DNA from: a virus
DNA length: 5,638 bases
Virus record (IMG/VR): IMGVR_UViG_3300011006_000493
Span: 1-5,638 of that record
Reading direction: 5' to 3' (one strand)
Shown here piece by piece: positions 1 through 5,638 of this stretch. The notes below the pieces were generated by a model. It was not told the DNA's origin. It saw only the letters and a list, made by a program, of their open reading frames with translations, and did no database searches. A program made the position numbers and the translations under genes. How positions within the stretch are numbered: position 1 is the first letter of the stretch; the number at the start of each line of letters is the position of its first letter.

Positions 1-15
1 TGCCGCATCCACGCG

Positions 16-39
16 GGGCGTCGACCGGAGTCGACGCCC
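16..39 (+). other. Perfect 10-bp GC-rich stem-loop, possibly a terminator or RNA-stability hairpin for an upstream gene
   Basis: GGGCGTCGAC (16-25), loop CGGA (26-29), GTCGACGCCC (30-39) is an exact inverted repeat. Only a weak TTT follows at 48-50, so this is not a canonical intrinsic terminator. It could also lie inside the 3' end of an upstream CDS. Confidence 0.3.
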
Positions 40-120
40 GGGCCGCCTTTCGCCGTAGCGAAGAATCCGCCGACCCCTCGGACCAAATCGCGTCCCGACG
101 ACGAATAAGTGGATTGCAAG

Positions 121-194
121 CGCGGGATGGTGCAACGGTAGCATCCGGGGTTCATGCCCCCGGGCCGCCGGTTCGACTCCGGCTCCCGCAACCA
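121..194 (+). tRNA. tRNA-Met(CAU) with initiator (fMet)-like features and an encoded CCA end
   Basis: Hand-folded cloverleaf. Acceptor 121-127 CGCGGGA pairs with 184-190 TCCCGCA (six Watson-Crick pairs plus a C1:A72 mismatch). U8 is present. D-stem is 130-133 GTGC with 141-144 GCAT, and the D-loop AACGGTA contains GG. Anticodon stem is 146-150 CGGGG with 158-162 CCCCG. The loop 151-157 is TTCATGC, with anticodon CAT at 153-155. The variable loop is 4 nt (GGCC). T-stem is 167-171 GCCGG with 179-183 CCGGC, and the T-loop is TTCGACT. Discriminator is A191 and CCA is at 192-194. Confidence 0.85.
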
Positions 195-283
195 ATGTCG
201 TTCCACGCGGGCCTCCTGCCGGGTTTTCGCTCCTTTTACCGGCAATGCCCATTGGATGCGTGGATGCCCGGCCGGGGGCACGA

Positions 284-299
284 GCGGCGTGCACGCCGC
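284..299. promoter_or_regulatory. Perfect 16-bp palindrome GCGGCGTGCACGCCGC upstream of the gpW-like gene, a candidate protein-binding site or hairpin
   Basis: The 16 bases are an exact self-complement. They lie 38 nt upstream of the ATG at 337, in the non-coding gap after the tRNA. An 8-nt tandem repeat TGGATGCG/TGGATGCC sits just upstream at 253-268. Function is unknown. Confidence 0.25.
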
Positions 300-336
300 A
301 CCGGCCGCCTCTTCACGTTCAACACCATTCACCACC

Positions 337-549
337 ATGACGAGCAGGACGCGAATCGAACGGCTCCGCCGGCTCGCGGACCAGCCCAAGTCGGCCTCGG
401 TCGACGGGCAGGAGATGTCGAACCATTCCCTCTCCGAACAGCTCGCCCTCGAGAAGTATCTCGCGTCCGAGGAGGCCGCCGCCCCCGCGGACCGCAGCCG
501 CCACGGCATCCGCATCACGAAGATGCGGGCAGGAGGCGGACCATGCTAG
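337..549 (+). CDS. Small head-completion / head-tail joining protein, lambda gpW-like (70 aa)
   Basis: Starts at the internal ATG of the 154..549 ORF. Third-position GC is high from 337 onward, while the upstream part of that ORF overlaps the tRNA and reads as junk. The product is MTSRTRIERLRRLADQPKSASVDGQEMSNHSLSEQLALEKYLASEE... Its size, its pattern (helix, then V-DG-x-hydrophobic, then S-x-x-L-x-x-x-x-YL) and its position directly before a lambda-family portal all match gpW. Its stop TAG (547-549) overlaps the portal ATG at 543. Confidence 0.6.
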   Translation: MTSRTRIERLRRLADQPKSASVDGQEMSNHSLSEQLALEKYLASEEAAAPADRSRHGIRITKMRAGGGPC

Positions 550-1982
550 GATTCCTCAAGGGAAAGCGCGATCCGAAGCCGAACCGGAACGACGTCTTCA
601 AGAACGCCTACTCGCGCGGCTACGCGCGCGGCCGCTACGACGCCGCGCAGACCACGGGCGACAACGCCAAGCACTGGTCGTTCGCCGACTTCCTCTCGGC
701 CGATGCCGAGGCGGACGCCTCGGTGCGGCAGATTCTTCGCACCCGCGCGCGCTACGAAGTCGCCAACAACTCCTACGCCAAGGGCATCGTGCTCACCCTG
801 GCGAATGACGCGGTCGGCACCGGCCCGCGGCTGCAAATGCTCACGGGCAGCGACGACCTCAACCGACGAATCGAGCACGACTGGGGGCGCTGGGAGAAAG
901 CGGTGCATCTCGCCGAGAAGCTCCGCACCCTGCGGATGGCAAGGTGCCAGGACGGAGAAGCCTTCGTCCTTCTGGCCAACAACCCCAACCTGAGCGATCC
1001 GAGCGTGACGCTCGACCTGCAGCTGATCGAAGCCGACCGGGTTACGGAAGACAGATTCAACACCGATCCGAACTGCATCGACGGCATCACGCTGGACGCC
1101 TTCGGCAACCCCCGATCCTACCGGATTCTGCGATATCACCCCGGCGGCGAGGCCGCCTTCCTGAACGCAGCGAGGGACGTCGACGCGCGCCATATCGTGC
1201 ATCTGTTCCGGGAGGATCGCCCCGGGCAGCACAGAGGAGTGCCGGAGATCACCCCGGCGCTCCCCCTCTTCGCCAACCTGCGCCGCTATACCTTGGCCGT
1301 CGTCGCCGCCGCGGAGGCCGCCGCCGACTTCGCCGGCATCCTCTACACGGACGCCCCGGCGAACGGCGAGGCGGCCGACGTCGACCCGATGGACACGATC
1401 CAGCTCGAGAGGAACATGCTGCTCACGATCCCGGGCGGCTGGAAGATGTCGCAGCTCGACCCCAAGCAGCCCGCCACGAGCTACGGGGACTTCAAACGCG
1501 AGATCCTGAACGAGATCGCAAGGTGTTTGAACATCCCCTACAACATCGCAGCCGGCAACAGCTCGGGCTACAACTACGCCTCCGGGCGGCTCGACCACCA
1601 GACCTACTACAAGTCGATCACGGTCGAGCGCTCCTACATCGAGCGCACGCTGCTCGACCGCGAGTTCGCCCGATGGCTTCGGGAGTGGTCGCTCTCGACC
1701 GGCACGACCGTGGACGAGTGCGACTGCAAGCACACGTGGTTCTGGGATGGCGCCGAACACGTGGACCCCAACAAGGAAGCCTCCGCCCAGGCGACACGCC
1801 TCTCCTCCCTCACCACGACCCTCGCCGCGGAATACGCACGGCAGGGGAAGGACTGGGAAGTCGAGCTGCGGCAGCTCGCCCGCGAGCGCGAACTCAAGAA
1901 AGAACTCGGCCTCAAGAGCGGCCACGAACTCCAATACGGGAACCAACCCACGCATGAACAAGACTCCACCGGGGACGAGTGA
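543..1982 (+). CDS. Phage portal protein, lambda gpB family (479 aa)
   Basis: In frame with the 114..1982 ORF but starting at ATG 543. A perfect AGGAGG at 531-536 sits 6 nt upstream. The N-terminus (FKNAYSRGYARGRYDAAQTTGDNAKHWSFADFLSADAEADASVRQILRTRARYEVANNSYAKG) and the later GNSSGYNYASGRLDHQ segment recall conserved blocks of lambda-type portals. Third-position GC is strong throughout. Confidence 0.92.
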   Translation: MLGFLKGKRDPKPNRNDVFKNAYSRGYARGRYDAAQTTGDNAKHWSFADFLSADAEADASVRQILRTRARYEVANNSYAKGIVLTLANDAVGTGPRLQMLTGSDDLNRRIEHDWGRWEKAVHLAEKLRTLRMARCQDGEAFVLLANNPNLSDPSVTLDLQLIEADRVTEDRFNTDPNCIDGITLDAFGNPRSYRILRYHPGGEAAFLNAARDVDARHIVHLFREDRPGQHRGVPEITPALPLFANLRRYTLAVVAAAEAAADFAGILYTDAPANGEAADVDPMDTIQLERNMLLTIPGGWKMSQLDPKQPATSYGDFKREILNEIARCLNIPYNIAAGNSSGYNYASGRLDHQTYYKSITVERSYIERTLLDREFARWLREWSLSTGTTVDECDCKHTWFWDGAEHVDPNKEASAQATRLSSLTTTLAAEYARQGKDWEVELRQLARERELKKELGLKSGHELQYGNQPTHEQDSTGDE

Positions 1983-2538
1983 GTTCCTCGAAATCACGGC
2001 CGCCTCCGCCGGCGGCAAGCACCCCAAAGTGTCCGGCGTCGCCTACGGCGGCGGGAAGATGACGCTCTGGGGCTGGCCCAAGCCGGTCGTGGTCGACCTC
2101 GCCGGCATGACGGTGCCGGAGGAGGTCCCGCTCCTCGCCGACCACGAGAACCACACGCTCGGCCGCGTCGGCGTGGTGCGCGCCAAGCCCGTCGAAGGCC
2201 ACCTTGCCGTCGAAGGCGAGATCGTGGCGGACGGCGAGGTCGCCGACGCCATCGTTTCGCAGGCGAAGGCCGGTGCCGCCTGGCAGCTCTCCATCGGCGC
2301 CGAGGTCGAATCCTCGGAGCTGGTGGAGAAAGGCACCCGCACCGTCAACGGCGTCGAACACGAAGCGCCGTTCTACCACATCACCAAGTCCACCCTGCGC
2401 GAAGTGTCCGTGGTCGCGGTCGGGGCGGATCGTAACACGAAAATGAACGTCACGGCCACCCTGAACCTCACCGGAAACATCCAAAGCATGAAGAACGAAC
2501 CCGAAACCAAGCCCGTCGAGGCGGCCGTCAACGCGGCC
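1954..2538 (+). CDS. Prohead maturation protease domain, HK97 / Peptidase S78 type. It reads in frame 1 and has no stop codon of its own, so the end coordinate is the approximate point where coding signal leaves this frame.
   Basis: This is part of the 1747..4467 ORF, starting at ATG 1954 and overlapping the portal end by 29 nt. The motifs VSGVAYGG...VPLLADHENHTLGRVG...GHLAVEGEI...AGAAWQLSIGAEV...LREVSVVAVGADRNT fit the S78 layout, with a His in the LL-x-x-H block and a Ser in the SIG block. Third-position GC is good up to about 2538. After that the frame reads as an Arg/Pro/Gly-rich string with codons such as CGA, CAA, CGT, GGA and CAT. Confidence 0.8.
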
Positions 2539-2571
2539 CGATTCCGACACCAAGCCCGTGGAGGCGGCCAT
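2501..2571 (+). repeat. Direct repeat with a 43-nt period (25/28 identical) spanning the protease-to-capsid frame switch
   Basis: Copy 1 at 2501-2528 is CCGAAACCAAGCCCGTCGAGGCGGCCGT. Copy 2 at 2544-2571 is CCGACACCAAGCCCGTGGAGGCGGCCAT. Copy 1 encodes ETKPVEAA in frame 1 and copy 2 encodes DTKPVEAA in frame 2. The period equals 14 codons plus 1 nt. Confidence 0.9.
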
Positions 2572-3928
2572 GCCGCCCGCCCCGGCCCCCGACCCGGCGC
2601 TCGCCGCCCAGGAGGCCATCAAGGCCGAACGCGGCCGCGTGGCCGAGATCCGCAAGGTCTGCGCCGGCGAGTTCCCGGACCTCGAGGCGAAGGCCGTCGA
2701 CGAGGGCTGGGACCTCAACCGCACCACGGCCGCGGTCCTCGCCGCGTTCCGGCAGCGCGAGCCGGTCGCCGCCCCCAACGTCATCGTGAAGGCCGAGGCC
2801 CGCCCCGACCGCAAGACCCTCGAGGCGGCCGTGTGCCTCCGCGCCGGCATCTCCGAGGACGTCGTCGCGAAGGACTACGGCGAGCAGGTGGCCGAGGCCG
2901 CCATGCCCGACCGCGACCTCCCGCTGCGCGGCCTCCTCGCCGAGTGCCTCCGCATCGAGGGCAAGTCCGTCCCCCGCGCGATGGACAACGAGGCCATCAA
3001 GGCGGCGTTCTCCACGGTGTCGTTGCCCGGCATTCTCGGGAACGTGGCCAACAAGAAACTCCTGCAGTCCTACCGCGCGCAGCCCGTGATCGCCACGAAG
3101 CTCTGCACCGAAGGCGATCTGAACGACTTCAAGGAGTCGGACCGGTTCCGTCTCACCGACGTGGGCGACCTGCAGCCGGTCGCCGCGGACGGCGAGATCA
3201 AAGAGGGCGGGCTCACGGAGGAGCCGGCGCGCAACCAGATCGACACCTACGCCAAGAAGTTCTGCCTCACGCGCAAGATGGTCATCAACGACGACCTCGG
3301 GGCGTTCCTCAAGGTCCCGGTGGCGATGGGCAACCGCGCCGCCCGCCTGATCGACCAGCTCTTCTTCCGCAGGCTCCTCGCGAACCCCGCCCAGCTCGAC
3401 GGCAACCCGCTCTTCGGCAAGCAGCACAAGAACCTGCTTTCCGGCGCGACGTCGGCGCTCGGCGCGGACTCGCTCAAGAAGGCGATCCAGCTCTTCTTGG
3501 ACCAGGTGGACGCGGACGGCCAGCCCATCGCGGTCGAGCCCCGCATCCTGCTCGTCCCGACCGCCCTCAAGCACCAGGCGCTCGAGCTCACGCGCGGCAC
3601 GACCCTCATCATGTCCGGCGCCGAGAGCCCGACCCTGCGGCCGGCCCTGAACATCCTCTCCGACGAGAACCTCGAGGTCGTCTCCTCGCCCTACCTCGCC
3701 AACGCCAAGTACGAAGGCGCCTCCGAGACGGCGTGGTACCTCTTCGGGCAGCCGGGGACGGTGGACACGTTCGAGATCGGCTACCTCAAGGGCAAGCGCG
3801 CCCCGACGGTCGAACGCGGCGACACCGACTTCAACACGCTGGGCATCTGGTTCCGCGTGTACTTCGACGTCGGGGTGAGGGAGCAGGACCATCGCGGGAT
3901 GGTCAAGGCGACCGGAGCCGCCAACTAG
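2570..3928 (+). CDS. Major capsid protein with an N-terminal scaffold/delta-like linker. The same frame is probably also the C-terminal part of a protease-capsid fusion.
   Basis: Frame 2 is open from 2492, after a TGA at 2489-2491. The track starts this ORF at GTG 2558. ATG 2570 is preferred because GGAGG at 2560-2564 lies 5 nt upstream. The N-terminal part (AQEAIKAERGRVAEIRKVCAGEFPDLEAKAVDEGW...) looks like a helical scaffold region. The remainder, including SLPGILGNVANKKLL, MVINDDLGAF, EPRILLVPTALKHQALEL, WYLFGQPG and the C-terminal DFNTLGIWFRVYFDVGVREQDHRG, resembles capsid proteins annotated as prohead protease/major capsid fusion proteins. Confidence 0.88.
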   Translation: MPPAPAPDPALAAQEAIKAERGRVAEIRKVCAGEFPDLEAKAVDEGWDLNRTTAAVLAAFRQREPVAAPNVIVKAEARPDRKTLEAAVCLRAGISEDVVAKDYGEQVAEAAMPDRDLPLRGLLAECLRIEGKSVPRAMDNEAIKAAFSTVSLPGILGNVANKKLLQSYRAQPVIATKLCTEGDLNDFKESDRFRLTDVGDLQPVAADGEIKEGGLTEEPARNQIDTYAKKFCLTRKMVINDDLGAFLKVPVAMGNRAARLIDQLFFRRLLANPAQLDGNPLFGKQHKNLLSGATSALGADSLKKAIQLFLDQVDADGQPIAVEPRILLVPTALKHQALELTRGTTLIMSGAESPTLRPALNILSDENLEVVSSPYLANAKYEGASETAWYLFGQPGTVDTFEIGYLKGKRAPTVERGDTDFNTLGIWFRVYFDVGVREQDHRGMVKATGAAN

Positions 3929-3940
3929 CCGTCCCTCGCT

Positions 3941-4091
3941 CGCCCGGCCGCGTTCGCGACCGGGCGGCGACGGCCGAAAGCTCGCCGCTTCGCGGCTCGG
4001 CCTTCGGATCGCGAATGCGGACTTTCCAACCTTCGAACTTTCGAACAACCCTCAACCAAGCGTCCCAAGCCGCGAACGCGGCGTTGGGACG
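3941..4091 (+). other. Three strong GC stem-loops in the capsid-to-DUF2190 spacer
   Basis: Hairpin 1 (3941-3966): CGCCCGG-C-CGC, loop GTTC, GCG-A-CCGGGCG. Hairpin 2 (3972-4002): outer stem GGCCGA/TCGGCC, a 6-nt 5'-side internal loop AAGCTC, and inner stem GCCGC/GCGGC with loop TTC. Hairpin 3 (4061-4091): CGTCCCAAGCCGC, loop GAAC, GCGGC-G-TTGGGACG, giving 13 bp with one bulge. None is followed by a T-run. Confidence 0.5.
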
Positions 4092-4104
4092 CGCCCGAAT
4101 TCTC

Positions 4105-4467
4105 ATGATCACCTACGTTCAGCGCGGGGACATTCTCGACTACACCCCCGAAACCGACACGCCCGCCGGCACCCCGGTGAAGATCGGCGACCTCGTCGGC
4201 ATCACCAAGCTCGACATCAAGGCCGGCCAGCTCGGCGCCATCGCCCTCACCGGCGTCTACGAGGCGCCCAAGCCCGAAGGCGAGGAAATCGCCGCGGGCG
4301 CGGCCGTCGCCTACGACCCGGCCACCGGCACGGTCTCGGCCGCCCAGGCCACCACCGGCGGGGACTCCGGGGCCGGCGGGGACGCTCCCGCCAAGATCCC
4401 CATCGGCGTCGCCGTCGCGGACGCTCCCGCGAACGCGCTCACCGTCCGGTTCCTCCTTGGCCACTAA
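4105..4467 (+). CDS. DUF2190-family small head protein (decoration-protein-like position), 120 aa
   Basis: This is the terminal segment of the 1747..4467 ORF, starting at ATG 4105. The N-terminus MITYVQRGDILDYTPETDTPAGTPVKIGDLVGITKLDIKAGQLGAIALTGVYEAPK and the C-terminus IPIGVAVADAPANALTVRF match my recollection of DUF2190 proteins, which usually flank major capsid genes. Third-position GC is high. Confidence 0.75.
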   Translation: MITYVQRGDILDYTPETDTPAGTPVKIGDLVGITKLDIKAGQLGAIALTGVYEAPKPEGEEIAAGAAVAYDPATGTVSAAQATTGGDSGAGGDAPAKIPIGVAVADAPANALTVRFLLGH

Positions 4468-4473
4468 CCGCCT

Positions 4474-4506
4474 GCGGGGGCGCCGGGCCAGCCCCGGCGC
4501 TCCCGC
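4474..4506 (+). terminator. 14-bp GC-rich hairpin 6 nt after the DUF2190 stop, a possible leaky terminator or mRNA-stabilising element
   Basis: GCGGGGGCGCCGGG (4474-4487), loop CCAGC (4488-4492), CCCGGCGCTCCCGC (4493-4506), giving 13 Watson-Crick pairs plus one G:U. It is followed by the G-poor stretch ACAAGTTCCAAGTTTCCC, which has only a short T-run. Confidence 0.45.
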
Positions 4507-4524
4507 ACAAGTTCCAAGTTTCCC

Positions 4525-4875
4525 ATGAACCTGCTCCGCCAAGCCATCGACTGGCTGCGCGACGCGGAGTTCTCGACCCTGGTCGAGCCGGTGGTCTACC
4601 ACCGGCCCGGCCGGGCGCCGGCGTCCGTCAACGCCATCGTCGGAAGAACCGTGTTCAAGCAGACCAACGAGAGCGGCGCGTTCGTGAGGACGCAGACCCG
4701 CGACTTTCTGATCGGCAGGAACAACCTCGACCGCGAGCCCGCCGCCGGCGACACCATCGCCTACGACGGCCGCACCTACGAGGTGATGGCGCCGGGCGGC
4801 GAGCCCGTCTGGCGGTGGAGCGACCCGTACCACCAGGTCTATCGCATCCACACCAAGTGCGTCTCGGAGGAATGA
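4525..4875 (+). CDS. Head-tail joining / head-closure protein (SPP1 gp16 or lambda FII-like beta-barrel class), 116 aa
   Basis: Complete ORF with high third-position GC. The pattern ...VNAIVGRTVF...FVRTQTRDFLI...AGDTIAYDGRTYEVM...YRIHTK resembles head-tail joining families, and the gene sits just after the capsid and decoration genes. The functional call is by resemblance and synteny only. Confidence 0.65.
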   Translation: MNLLRQAIDWLRDAEFSTLVEPVVYHRPGRAPASVNAIVGRTVFKQTNESGAFVRTQTRDFLIGRNNLDREPAAGDTIAYDGRTYEVMAPGGEPVWRWSDPYHQVYRIHTKCVSEE

Positions 4876-4879
4876 CACC

Positions 4880-5110
4880 ATGCCCGAACACGAAGACTCC
4901 ATCTACGAATCTGTCAACCGCTGCCGTATGGACATCGCGGAACTCAGGGGTATGATAACCATGCATTTCCGCGACGGAGAACACCACCATCCGCCCTGCG
5001 TTCCGGCCCAGCAGATGCAGCGCACCCTGCTCACCGCCACCGGCGCGGCCGTGCTTTCGCTCGTGTCCGCTCTCGGCCTGCTCCTCATGGAGTTCCTGAA
5101 GCATGGGTAG
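4880..5110 (+). CDS. Small hypothetical protein with a C-terminal transmembrane anchor (76 aa)
   Basis: ATG 4880 has GGAGG at 4866-4870. Third-position GC is about four-fifths by hand count, which supports real coding. The N-terminal 45 aa are polar and include HFRDGEHHHPPC. The C-terminus TLLTATGAAVLSLVSALGLLLMEFL is a single hydrophobic helix. The stop overlaps the next start (ATGGGTAG). Confidence 0.65.
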   Translation: MPEHEDSIYESVNRCRMDIAELRGMITMHFRDGEHHHPPCVPAQQMQRTLLTATGAAVLSLVSALGLLLMEFLKHG

Positions 5111-5519
5111 GCTCGACGAACTGGCCGGAGCCGTTGCCGCCGAGCTCTCCCGGTACGGGGCGACCGTGTGTTACCTGCCCGAATTCAAGCTCGCCGAACT
5201 CTCGCAGATGCGCGTCGTCGTCGTGCCGACCGGCATCGAGGACGAACTCTCCACCCGCGATTCCATCGGCGCCCTCTACAAGGTATCCGTCGGCGTCCTC
5301 AAGAAAACCACCGAGGACGAACTGCCGCACCTCACGGGCGTCGTGCGCGGCATCGGGCGGCACTTCCTCGGCAAGCATCTTGCCGGGTGTTCCTGCGTGA
5401 AGGCGTCCTACGACCCCATCTACTCCCCGGAGCAGTTCCGGGAGAAGCGGCAGTTCACGGGCGTCGCCGTACTCTCGTTCCGAACGGTCGAACGCCATGA
5501 AGGCGAGACTCTCGTTTGA
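5103..5519 (+). CDS. Hypothetical virion-module protein, probably a head-tail connector or adaptor component (138 aa)
   Basis: Complete ORF with strong third-position GC. It is translationally coupled on both sides, overlapping the upstream gene by 8 nt and the next gene by 23 nt. I recognise no motif, so the function is inferred from position between a head-closure-like gene and a gp10-like gene. Confidence 0.7.
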   Translation: MGRLDELAGAVAAELSRYGATVCYLPEFKLAELSQMRVVVVPTGIEDELSTRDSIGALYKVSVGVLKKTTEDELPHLTGVVRGIGRHFLGKHLAGCSCVKASYDPIYSPEQFREKRQFTGVAVLSFRTVERHEGETLV

Positions 5520-5638
5520 CGCGCGCGGTCTCGCGGCCGCCGTGCTGCGGGGCTCGCTCGGCGCCCTGCGCCGTGCCGGCGCCTACGTGCGCCGCGCCGC
5601 CCGGCACCAGGTCAAGACGAGCGCCAGCCCGTCGCCGC
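5497..5638 (+). CDS. HK97 gp10-like head-tail protein, 5' partial that runs off the window
   Basis: ATG 5497 opens frame 1, which stays open to the window edge. It is absent from the ORF track, presumably because it has no stop. The product begins MKARLSFDARGLAAAVLRGSLGALRRAGAYVRRAARHQVKTSASPSP. The N-terminal pattern (short leader, G-x-x-x-x-x-L, then an Ala/Arg-rich helix) and the position are typical of the HK97 gp10 family. Third-position GC is high. Confidence 0.6.
   Translation, partial: MKARLSFDARGLAAAVLRGSLGALRRAGAYVRRAARHQVKTSASPSP

Follow-up and report, generated by a model that had tools for sequence, protein, structure and literature searches.

A prohead protease/major capsid fusion gene divided between two reading frames in a metagenomic phage head module

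The window analysed here is a 5638-nt phage head module encoded on the + strand (IMG/VR record IMGVR_UViG_3300011006_000493, positions 1 to 5,638), in which an S78 prohead protease and an HK97-type major capsid protein follow one another between positions 1954 and 3928 and are read in different frames. Sequence comparison gives good support for the two halves being a single ancestral gene that is broken in the window. The gene type is already known, being curated as 'prohead protease/major capsid protein fusion protein', and comprises an S78 protease, a variable linker rich in Pro, Ala, Lys and Glu, a helical scaffold-like part and an HK97-type capsid. Our favoured reading, to which we assign a probability of about one half, is that this copy of the gene carries an accidental lesion that is real in the DNA. 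Be it a mutation or an assembly fault, the break most likely arose by accident and was not designed for recoding. We established that the two halves derive from one gene, where it is broken, that the break is private to the window and that the rest of the contig is intact. Below, L-numbers denote relative contigs or loci and P-numbers denote database proteins used in the comparisons. The elements of the disrupted gene are as follows.

1954-2538, + strand: prohead serine protease domain (~residues 1-175, ATG start at 1954) and the 5' half of the linker (…NIQSMKNEPETKPVEAAVNAA), in frame 1 according to Pfam, PHROG, tblastn and GC content at third codon positions (GC3)
2488-2490, + strand: ATG in frame 1, upstream of the break, counterpart of a family-wide internal Met after the protease domain
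2496-2526, + strand: repeat copy 1, frame-1 translation (N)EPETKPVEAA
2537-2540, + strand: frame break (CCC G), with one base too many or two too few
2539-2569, + strand: repeat copy 2, frame-2 translation (P)DSDTKPVEAA, matching the in-frame 658/659-aa relatives exactly
2560-2572, + strand: GGAGG (2560-2564), 5-nt spacer and ATG (2570-2572), a predicted strong internal ribosome-binding site in the capsid frame
2540-3928, + strand: 3' half of the linker, helical scaffold-like region and HK97-type major capsid protein, in frame 2, ending at 3928 (stop codon 3926-3928)
2539-4467, + strand: open run of frame 1 after the break, non-coding by composition until it joins the frame of the decoration gene at 4105

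Several lines of evidence placed the protease in frame 1. Residues 57-168 matched PF04586 (Peptidase_S78) at 30.9 bits (E = 3.7e-7; gathering score 21), and a match to phrog_3244 ('head maturation protease') was found at 1e-17; TIGR01543 scored 25 bits only, under its cut-off of 59. H64 (LLADHENH) and S113 (WQLSIG) were invariant in alignment A1, and we take them to be catalytic by correspondence to His65 and Ser114 of HK97 gp4. GC3 in frame 1 was 0.89 over 1954-2538 and 0.44 after it, and tblastn alignments of the intact relatives P0002 and P0024 kept to frame 1 as far as 2535-2538. An earlier note on this DNA had read an S78-like protease in frame 1 from 1954 to about 2538, and had named a protease-family match there as its premise; that match is present, with PF04586 above threshold.

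The earlier note had also placed the continuing coding signal in frame 2, which opens after a TGA (2489-2491) and runs to the stop at 3926-3928, and this was borne out by composition (GC3 of 0.97 over 2540-3925), by tblastn and by capsid profiles. PF25209 (Phage_capsid_4/Mu gpT-like) matched at 160 bits against a threshold of 27 (1.8e-46) and PF10124 at 33 bits against a threshold of 20, and there was a weak match to the solved Mu gpT-domain capsids 8rkx/8rkc (E = 0.008). The sequence downstream was confirmed at 99.8% identity by an independent contig, L016. A 452-aa capsid gene call in JGI/IMG, P0147, corresponds exactly to window positions 2570-3925; it was found through a cluster listing, and exact-product look-ups of the window capsid (452 and 456 aa), the portal and the 127-aa decoration protein gave no record. 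We also modelled the intact relative P0002 with AlphaFold2 from a shallow alignment, at a mean predicted local distance difference test (pLDDT) score of 47.6, the capsid part scoring <50. This low-confidence model shows a beta-rich protease at residues 25-157 (pLDDT 60-83), an unstructured linker at 155-211 and helices at 214-335 (pLDDT 61-83), and as a prediction it fits a protease-linker-scaffold-capsid layout.

That the two halves were once a single gene is evident from the relatives. The head-tail joining protein of the window recurred unchanged on at least 20 other metagenome contigs, and all eight of those that cover the region encode a single open reading frame (ORF) of 658, 659 or 666 aa comprising protease, linker and capsid, with 88-95% nucleotide identity to the window over the fusion gene and ~98% in the capsid protein. 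When one C was deleted, the window likewise yielded a continuous fusion, as had been proposed, although its length is 657 aa (195 + 462 codons) and not the 658 aa first given. A search with this repaired protein returned 2016 homologues, and the 120 listed were nearly all single proteins of 637-698 aa; those with names came from metagenome-assembled genomes of Kiritimatiellae. Among 159 fetched IMG/VR loci, which include some contigs twice, a full-length ORF was found in 137, while 14 were cut by the locus end, six were not recognised by the motif used and two ended prematurely. Examples of intact relatives are L003 (6717-8696) and an IMG/VR locus with GAAGGAGAAGCAATG. The earlier proposal that the halves form one protease-capsid fusion thus agrees with all of the close relatives and nearly all of the distant ones, which are in frame, and the tblastn match of intact P0002 to the window changes frame where expected, its frame-1 part reaching 2538 and its frame-2 part starting at 2522.

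Profile searches were consistent with this. Both halves matched phrog_4523 ('major head and protease protein') collinearly, the protease at positions 72-178 and the capsid at 215-644 (1.3e-87 for the latter). The repaired protein aligned with NCBIfam model NF045541 in one stretch (residues 56-655 to positions 49-634, E = 7e-105), of which the capsid half accounts for positions 193-634. The score of 352 bits lies below the curated cut-off of 525; since the intact relatives P0002 and P0024 also fall below it (342-346 bits), the clade of the window appears to be a distant branch of NF045541 and not a core member. Nearly all members of this fusion family carry the gene as one ORF; in the window the protease occupies frame 1 and the capsid frame 2.

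An S78 protease, a linker and a C-terminal HK97-fold capsid in one polypeptide also make up the named NF045541 ('scaf_prot_MCP2') and phrog_4523 fusions, with which the halves of the window align collinearly. Examples include Stenotrophomonas phage S1 gp8, Shewanella phage 1/44 and the capsid polyprotein of Pseudomonas phage PAJU2, the last a literature precedent for the fusion (PMC8306868). Among cultured phages, Stenotrophomonas S1, Shewanella 1/44 and Paracoccus Psul1 have both the architecture and the annotation; unlike theirs, the window copy is split over two frames, and identity to them is only 24-30%. All three parts also share one ORF in the 'tripartite' ClpP-like protease-scaffold-capsid genes of Gifsy-2 and Fels-1 (NF045540), which the capsid half matched at 3.9e-61, with Fels-1 matched by tblastn as well. 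The protease of these genes, however, is ClpP/S49-like and not S78, and homology with the window is limited to the scaffold and capsid parts. The tripartite genes of Gifsy-2 were reportedly the subject of work by Effantin and colleagues in Virology in 2010.

The window protease shares its conserved His and Ser with the S78 protease of HK97 (gp4), whose capsid protein (gp5) carries a delta domain. In HK97 separate genes, each ending in a stop of its own, encode the protease and the capsid, and targeting of the protease depends on its C-terminal tail; unlike this two-gene state, the ancestral state of the window's gene is a covalent fusion. From the Pfam matches and the helical prediction, the window capsid would have a helical assembly domain at its N-terminus that is lost during maturation, as in HK97 gp5.

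The break itself lies in the linker, at a direct repeat (2496-2526 versus 2539-2569) whose copies are identical at 27 of 31 positions with a period of 43 nt. No other such repeat occurred in the window, nor in 300 first-order Markov simulations; the repeat reported previously (2501-2528/2544-2571, 25/28) is a sub-window of it. Among relatives, the linker varies in sequence and in length, always by multiples of three. Between 2471 and 2539 it measures 69 nt in the window versus 68 (L004) and 71 (L003) in in-frame relatives. The close relatives read …TGQTP(P)SMK(S/P)EIPDMKDAKPVVVPDSDTKPVEAAMPP…, and the window reads …TGNIQSMKNEPETKPVEAAVNAA in frame 1 and then DSDTKPVEAAMPP in frame 2. The spacing from one KPV motif to the next is 30, 51 or 63 nt in relatives, all in frame. 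Repeat copy 1 matches the ETKPVEAA of a more distant clade and resembles the KPVVAAANAA allele of L100, and the window's AAVNAA corresponds to AAANAA in the L100/P0133 allele. L100 has GCGGCGGCCAATGCGGCG… in place of the window's GCGGCCGTCAACGCGGCC, after which the continuation differs. Compared with L100, L003 and L001, the window linker reads as a mosaic of an L100-like 5' half (…AA-V/A-NAA; …KPVEAAVNAA) and a 3' half of the 658/659-aa type ((P)DSDTKPVEAAM), apparently joined at GCGGCC/C/GATTCC, with the break at the joint.

These comparisons narrowed the break from the interval between 2529 and 2543 that was first suggested to 2537-2540. The single extra base proposed by the earlier note fits, and a two-base deletion (GCC CCC GAT to GCCCGAT) fits equally well. 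Its further suggestion of a fresh 14-codon duplication did not hold, in that relatives already have two in-frame KPV motifs. A single 43-nt tandem duplication was also considered as the cause and set aside; deleting 2496-2538 does restore the frame, but since the clade had two KPV motifs ancestrally, such an origin is less parsimonious.

If the lesion is real, the linker, which is repeat-rich and hypervariable, would have slipped or recombined imprecisely, leaving a net change of +1 nt (or -2 nt) at 2537-2540, where it switches allele type, in a phage or prophage of a Kiritimatiellae population. The full-length protease-bearing product would then be lost, with ribosomes from 1954 running through a junk frame to 4467. 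A scaffold-capsid product could still be made from the GGAGG-N5-ATG at 2570, and proheads might be assembled but would probably be poorly matured, because the protease would be untethered from the capsid subunit.

We infer that the lesion is real in the DNA because de Bruijn assemblers invent no k-mers and because the length of the linker visibly changes in nature. Linkers do acquire indels naturally, two out of three of which would shift the frame. No further lesion occurs in the contig, whose portal, decoration, head-tail joining and downstream ORFs are all intact, and the private substitutions in the protease (12 non-synonymous, 13 synonymous) do not point to neutral decay; the lesion, if real, would therefore be recent.

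A possible alternative, which we consider somewhat less probable than a real lesion, is an assembly or sequencing artefact, whereby the gene is in frame in the phage and the contig misrepresents it, through an error in the C-run (GCCCG called from GCCCCCG or from GCCG) or through two co-occurring strain haplotypes joined out of register within the linker. Several observations count in its favour and against a real lesion. Differences private to the window are frequent over 700-2536 (16 of them in 2500-2536), the last one falling at 2536, and only four follow in the next ~1390 nt; the break thus sits exactly where a privately diverged haplotype gives way to a near-common one, which would also be the look of a strain chimera. 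Three other contigs end within ~15-95 nt of the break, at or just after the linker (L015 and L017 start at window-equivalent 2551/2552 and L016 at 2630), so assemblers evidently struggle there. The break lies inside a C-run, and everything else in the contig is intact. Approximately 1-2% of metagenomic copies of the fusion gene are broken in assorted ways, some of them clearly artefactual, such as P0169 with a hairpin-like reverse-complement tail and P0171 with a duplicated out-of-frame segment. Finally, the linker allele of the window, in frame or broken, was absent from the 120 homologues listed and from 42 cluster members, and four unrelated chance matches (L011-L014) were all that came from an exact 24-mer search of JGI metagenome contigs, IMG/VR and GTDB genomes.

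An artefact is harder to reconcile with the joint itself. The two alleles seem to share only ~5 nt there (GCCC/CCCC), which is too little for a false graph join at k >= 21, and a graph assembler requires real k-mers across the joint. Consensus indels from short reads are rare in homopolymers of 3-5 nt. Moreover, low diversity downstream of the linker is general in this phage group and not specific to the contig. The haplotype switch at 2536/2537 was at one point taken as proof of a chimera, and that argument is weakened because the relatives, too, differ little among themselves downstream of the linker.

Two 452-aa capsid-only proteins, P0070 and P0145, were examined as second cases of the break and rejected as contig-end truncations, having only 18-19 nt upstream. 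Because contigs begin at or near the linker, gene callers report such 452-aa 'capsid-only' proteins on L015 and L017, and these are truncations.

With a real lesion still our preferred account, the break itself matters little, as a single damaged or mis-assembled copy of a catalogued gene type. For annotation, 1954-3928 is best treated as a single disrupted fusion gene, in preference to a protease lacking a stop and an independent capsid gene. The linker is a hot spot of length variation and contig breaks, which is useful for judging gene calls in metagenomic phages.

The capsid frame carries its own start signals just after the break. GGAGG (2560-2564) and ATG (2570) are present as the earlier note described, with a predicted anti-Shine-Dalgarno (anti-SD) duplex energy at 2560-2572 of -9.3 kcal/mol, compared with -10.3 at the portal start. 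The note had these signals created by differences between the repeat copies. The same bases already stand in most in-frame relatives (L001, L003 and others), the site being missing in L002 (ATA) and in L020 and L021 (Leu); because it is present in in-frame relatives, it did not arise with the break and was not made to rescue this copy.

A second candidate internal start, upstream of the break, is conserved across this fusion family, which is large and for the most part uncultured. Approximately 25-30 residues past REVSVVAVGAD lies a Met preceded by codons that spell AAGGAG or GGAGG, and in alignments the window ATG at 2488 falls on the M of motifs such as KGNSIMEPE and EGEAMNNK. Anti-SD energies at this Met had a median of -8.7 kcal/mol (39 unique contexts) compared with -3.3 for 505 other in-frame ATGs (p = 7e-16); at 2488 itself the SD is weak (-3.5 kcal/mol). 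The Gly codon of the motif is GGA in 33 of 35 contexts versus a background of 19%, and the codon before it always ends in A. An example among loci L020-L099 is L086 (…CAGGAAGGAGAAGCTATGAAC…). This conservation suggests a constraint at the nucleotide level and an internally initiated scaffold-capsid product from these single ORFs, so a capsid-only product is probably normal. The nested start proposed earlier was therefore right in that an internal SD and ATG exist; the start conserved throughout the family is the one at 2488 and not that at 2570. Were two products made, one bearing the protease and the other plain scaffold-capsid, this would explain how one protease per capsid subunit is avoided.

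Nested starts of this kind are known from lambda C/Nu3 and Mu I/Z, where initiation at an in-frame internal ribosome-binding site adds a shorter, C-terminal product to that of the whole ORF, and the fusion family conserves an SD and ATG in a similar way. Both lambda and Mu have a separate capsid gene and proteases of other families. The nested product here would by comparison comprise scaffold plus capsid, and the window's nested start at 2570 is out of frame with the protease, unlike those of lambda and Mu.

These signals bear on a further explanation, namely a natural split that is tolerated, in which a real lesion persists in a working phage that makes its capsid from the SD and ATG at 2570 and its protease untethered or as part of the read-through product. 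In its favour, a strong SD and ATG lie 30 nt past the break in the capsid frame, the family conserves an internal SD and ATG after the protease domain, and stand-alone proteases and protease-scaffold-only genes do exist in the wider family (P0218, P0222, P0240, P0183, P0213). Two more distant relatives, L018 and L019, also have 2-nt gaps upstream of the internal ATG, although these may themselves be errors. Set against this, the protease frame of the window has no stop for 1929 nt, which would append ~640 residues of Arg/Pro/Gly-rich junk; an untethered protease would have no evident route into the prohead; and the arrangement was seen in one contig only. We consider a tolerated split improbable.

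The gaps in L018 (4460-4520) and L019 (3880-3962) lie near the C-terminus of the protease (CAA[CT]GAAAGG and GCCG[TG]GGC, respectively). They leave protease ORFs of 172 and 175 aa whose TGA overlaps the conserved capsid ATG (ATGGAACCTGA), with the capsid in the +1 frame, and could be natural split variants or errors.

Recoding, in the form of a programmed +1 shift, was ranked by the earlier note as the least likely of its three explanations, and we agree that recoding is very unlikely. Under it, a programmed or compensatory +1 shift (at GCC-CGA or at either of two CCC-G codons in frame 1, at 2500 and 2512) or a 43-nt hop would rebuild a little of the fusion, with a junction peptide such as …VNAADSDTKPVEAAM… and with most capsid made from the ATG at 2570. 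Equally remote is a tolerated 'savior-type' indel, in which a few fusion subunits per prohead would arise by a +1 shift in 2492-2540 or by a hop, so that their ratio to capsid was set by recoding and not by two initiation sites. The geometry would permit either event. Frame 2 is open from 2492, so a +1 shift anywhere in 2492-2540 gives a continuous fusion, and, because the repeat period is 43 nt, the frame is also regained by hopping from a codon in one copy to the same codon in the other. A few protease copies per prohead might suffice. There is precedent in the capsid and tail genes of Listeria phage PSA, where +1 shifting takes place on proline codons, and low-level compensatory frameshifting over 'savior' indels is documented (PMC5009743).

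The site itself offers little to such a mechanism. Its frame arrangement was found in no relative among the eight close contigs, the listed homologues and the IMG/VR loci. No recognised slippery site was found at the break beyond two generic CCC-G codons and GCC-CGA, re-pairing from GCC to CCC would be poor, and no known stimulator follows the candidate sites; RNA folding of 2536-2660 (125 nt) was no better than that of shuffled sequences (z = -0.44). As with PSA cps/tsh and prfB, the change that the window would need is +1, inside a structural gene with proline codons nearby; in PSA and prfB, however, the sites are conserved and place the shift codon beside a stop or a pseudoknot (PMC5009743), none of which applies to the window. 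A bypass of the T4 gene 60 type would be expected to have a stop after take-off and a take-off hairpin. Both features are missing, and although matched take-off and landing codons are trivially present in the two repeat copies, no stop follows any candidate take-off codon and relatives show no conservation of the arrangement. Programmed frameshifting is thus unsupported, because the arrangement is unshared and there is no nearby frame-1 stop, slippery site or stimulatory RNA structure. Broken copies elsewhere, moreover, shift in both directions at scattered sites. The idea that all broken copies shift +1 through a 2-nt deletion, drawn from L018 and L019, was rejected on this ground: the breaks in P0224, P0251, P0241, P0163, L141 and L170 lie at other places, involve other frames and follow no pattern.

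The absence of a stop in frame 1 between 1954 and 4465-4467, and the Arg/Pro/Gly-rich text with poor GC3 that follows the break, had been remarked on in the earlier note and were found as described. In intact relatives, the corresponding -1 frame contains 0-1 stops across the capsid. The long open frame is a by-product of composition, because T occupies only ~2% of third positions in the capsid. The junk frame is also that of the decoration gene (4105-4467), so an unshifted read-through product would end in an intact decoration-protein domain; this shared frame is probably a coincidence of composition.

Besides the disrupted gene, the head module contains the following features, together with three small ORFs on the + strand.

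121-194, + strand: tRNA-Met(CAT), identified with Rfam
337-549, + strand: 70-aa ORF
543-1982, + strand: lambda-family portal
4105-4467, + strand: decoration/cement protein
4525-4875, + strand: head-tail joining protein

The tRNA-Met (CAT) was the sole match in the Rfam scan of the window, and a promoter and terminator scan of the window returned nothing relevant. The tRNA lies between the terminase region and the portal operon, in the same place as in relatives. The spacer between capsid and decoration genes (3929-4104) contains several GC-rich hairpins (3941-3966 and 4064-4087) and cannot be aligned with most relatives. The decoration gene (4105-4461) is only 88-90% identical to that of most relatives and 21 nt shorter; its identity to L016 (JGI sample 3300011008) is 99.8%.

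In most relatives a DNA methylase gene (618-649 aa) is located exactly between a leader (…CACCCACC) and the ATG of the 70-aa ORF (L001 3252-5108; L003 3166-5115). Both the window (195-340) and L100 (4069-4384) are without it, and there the leader directly joins the ATG of the 70-aa ORF, a clean cassette-type presence/absence. Upstream of the small terminase, relatives carry an S-adenosylmethionine synthetase and a HARE-HTH gene (L002 1-1008; L100 24-1504), and L007 has acetolactate-synthase-like genes inside its tail region (2468-3652). These flanking genes may represent prophage borders, cargo genes or chimeric contigs.

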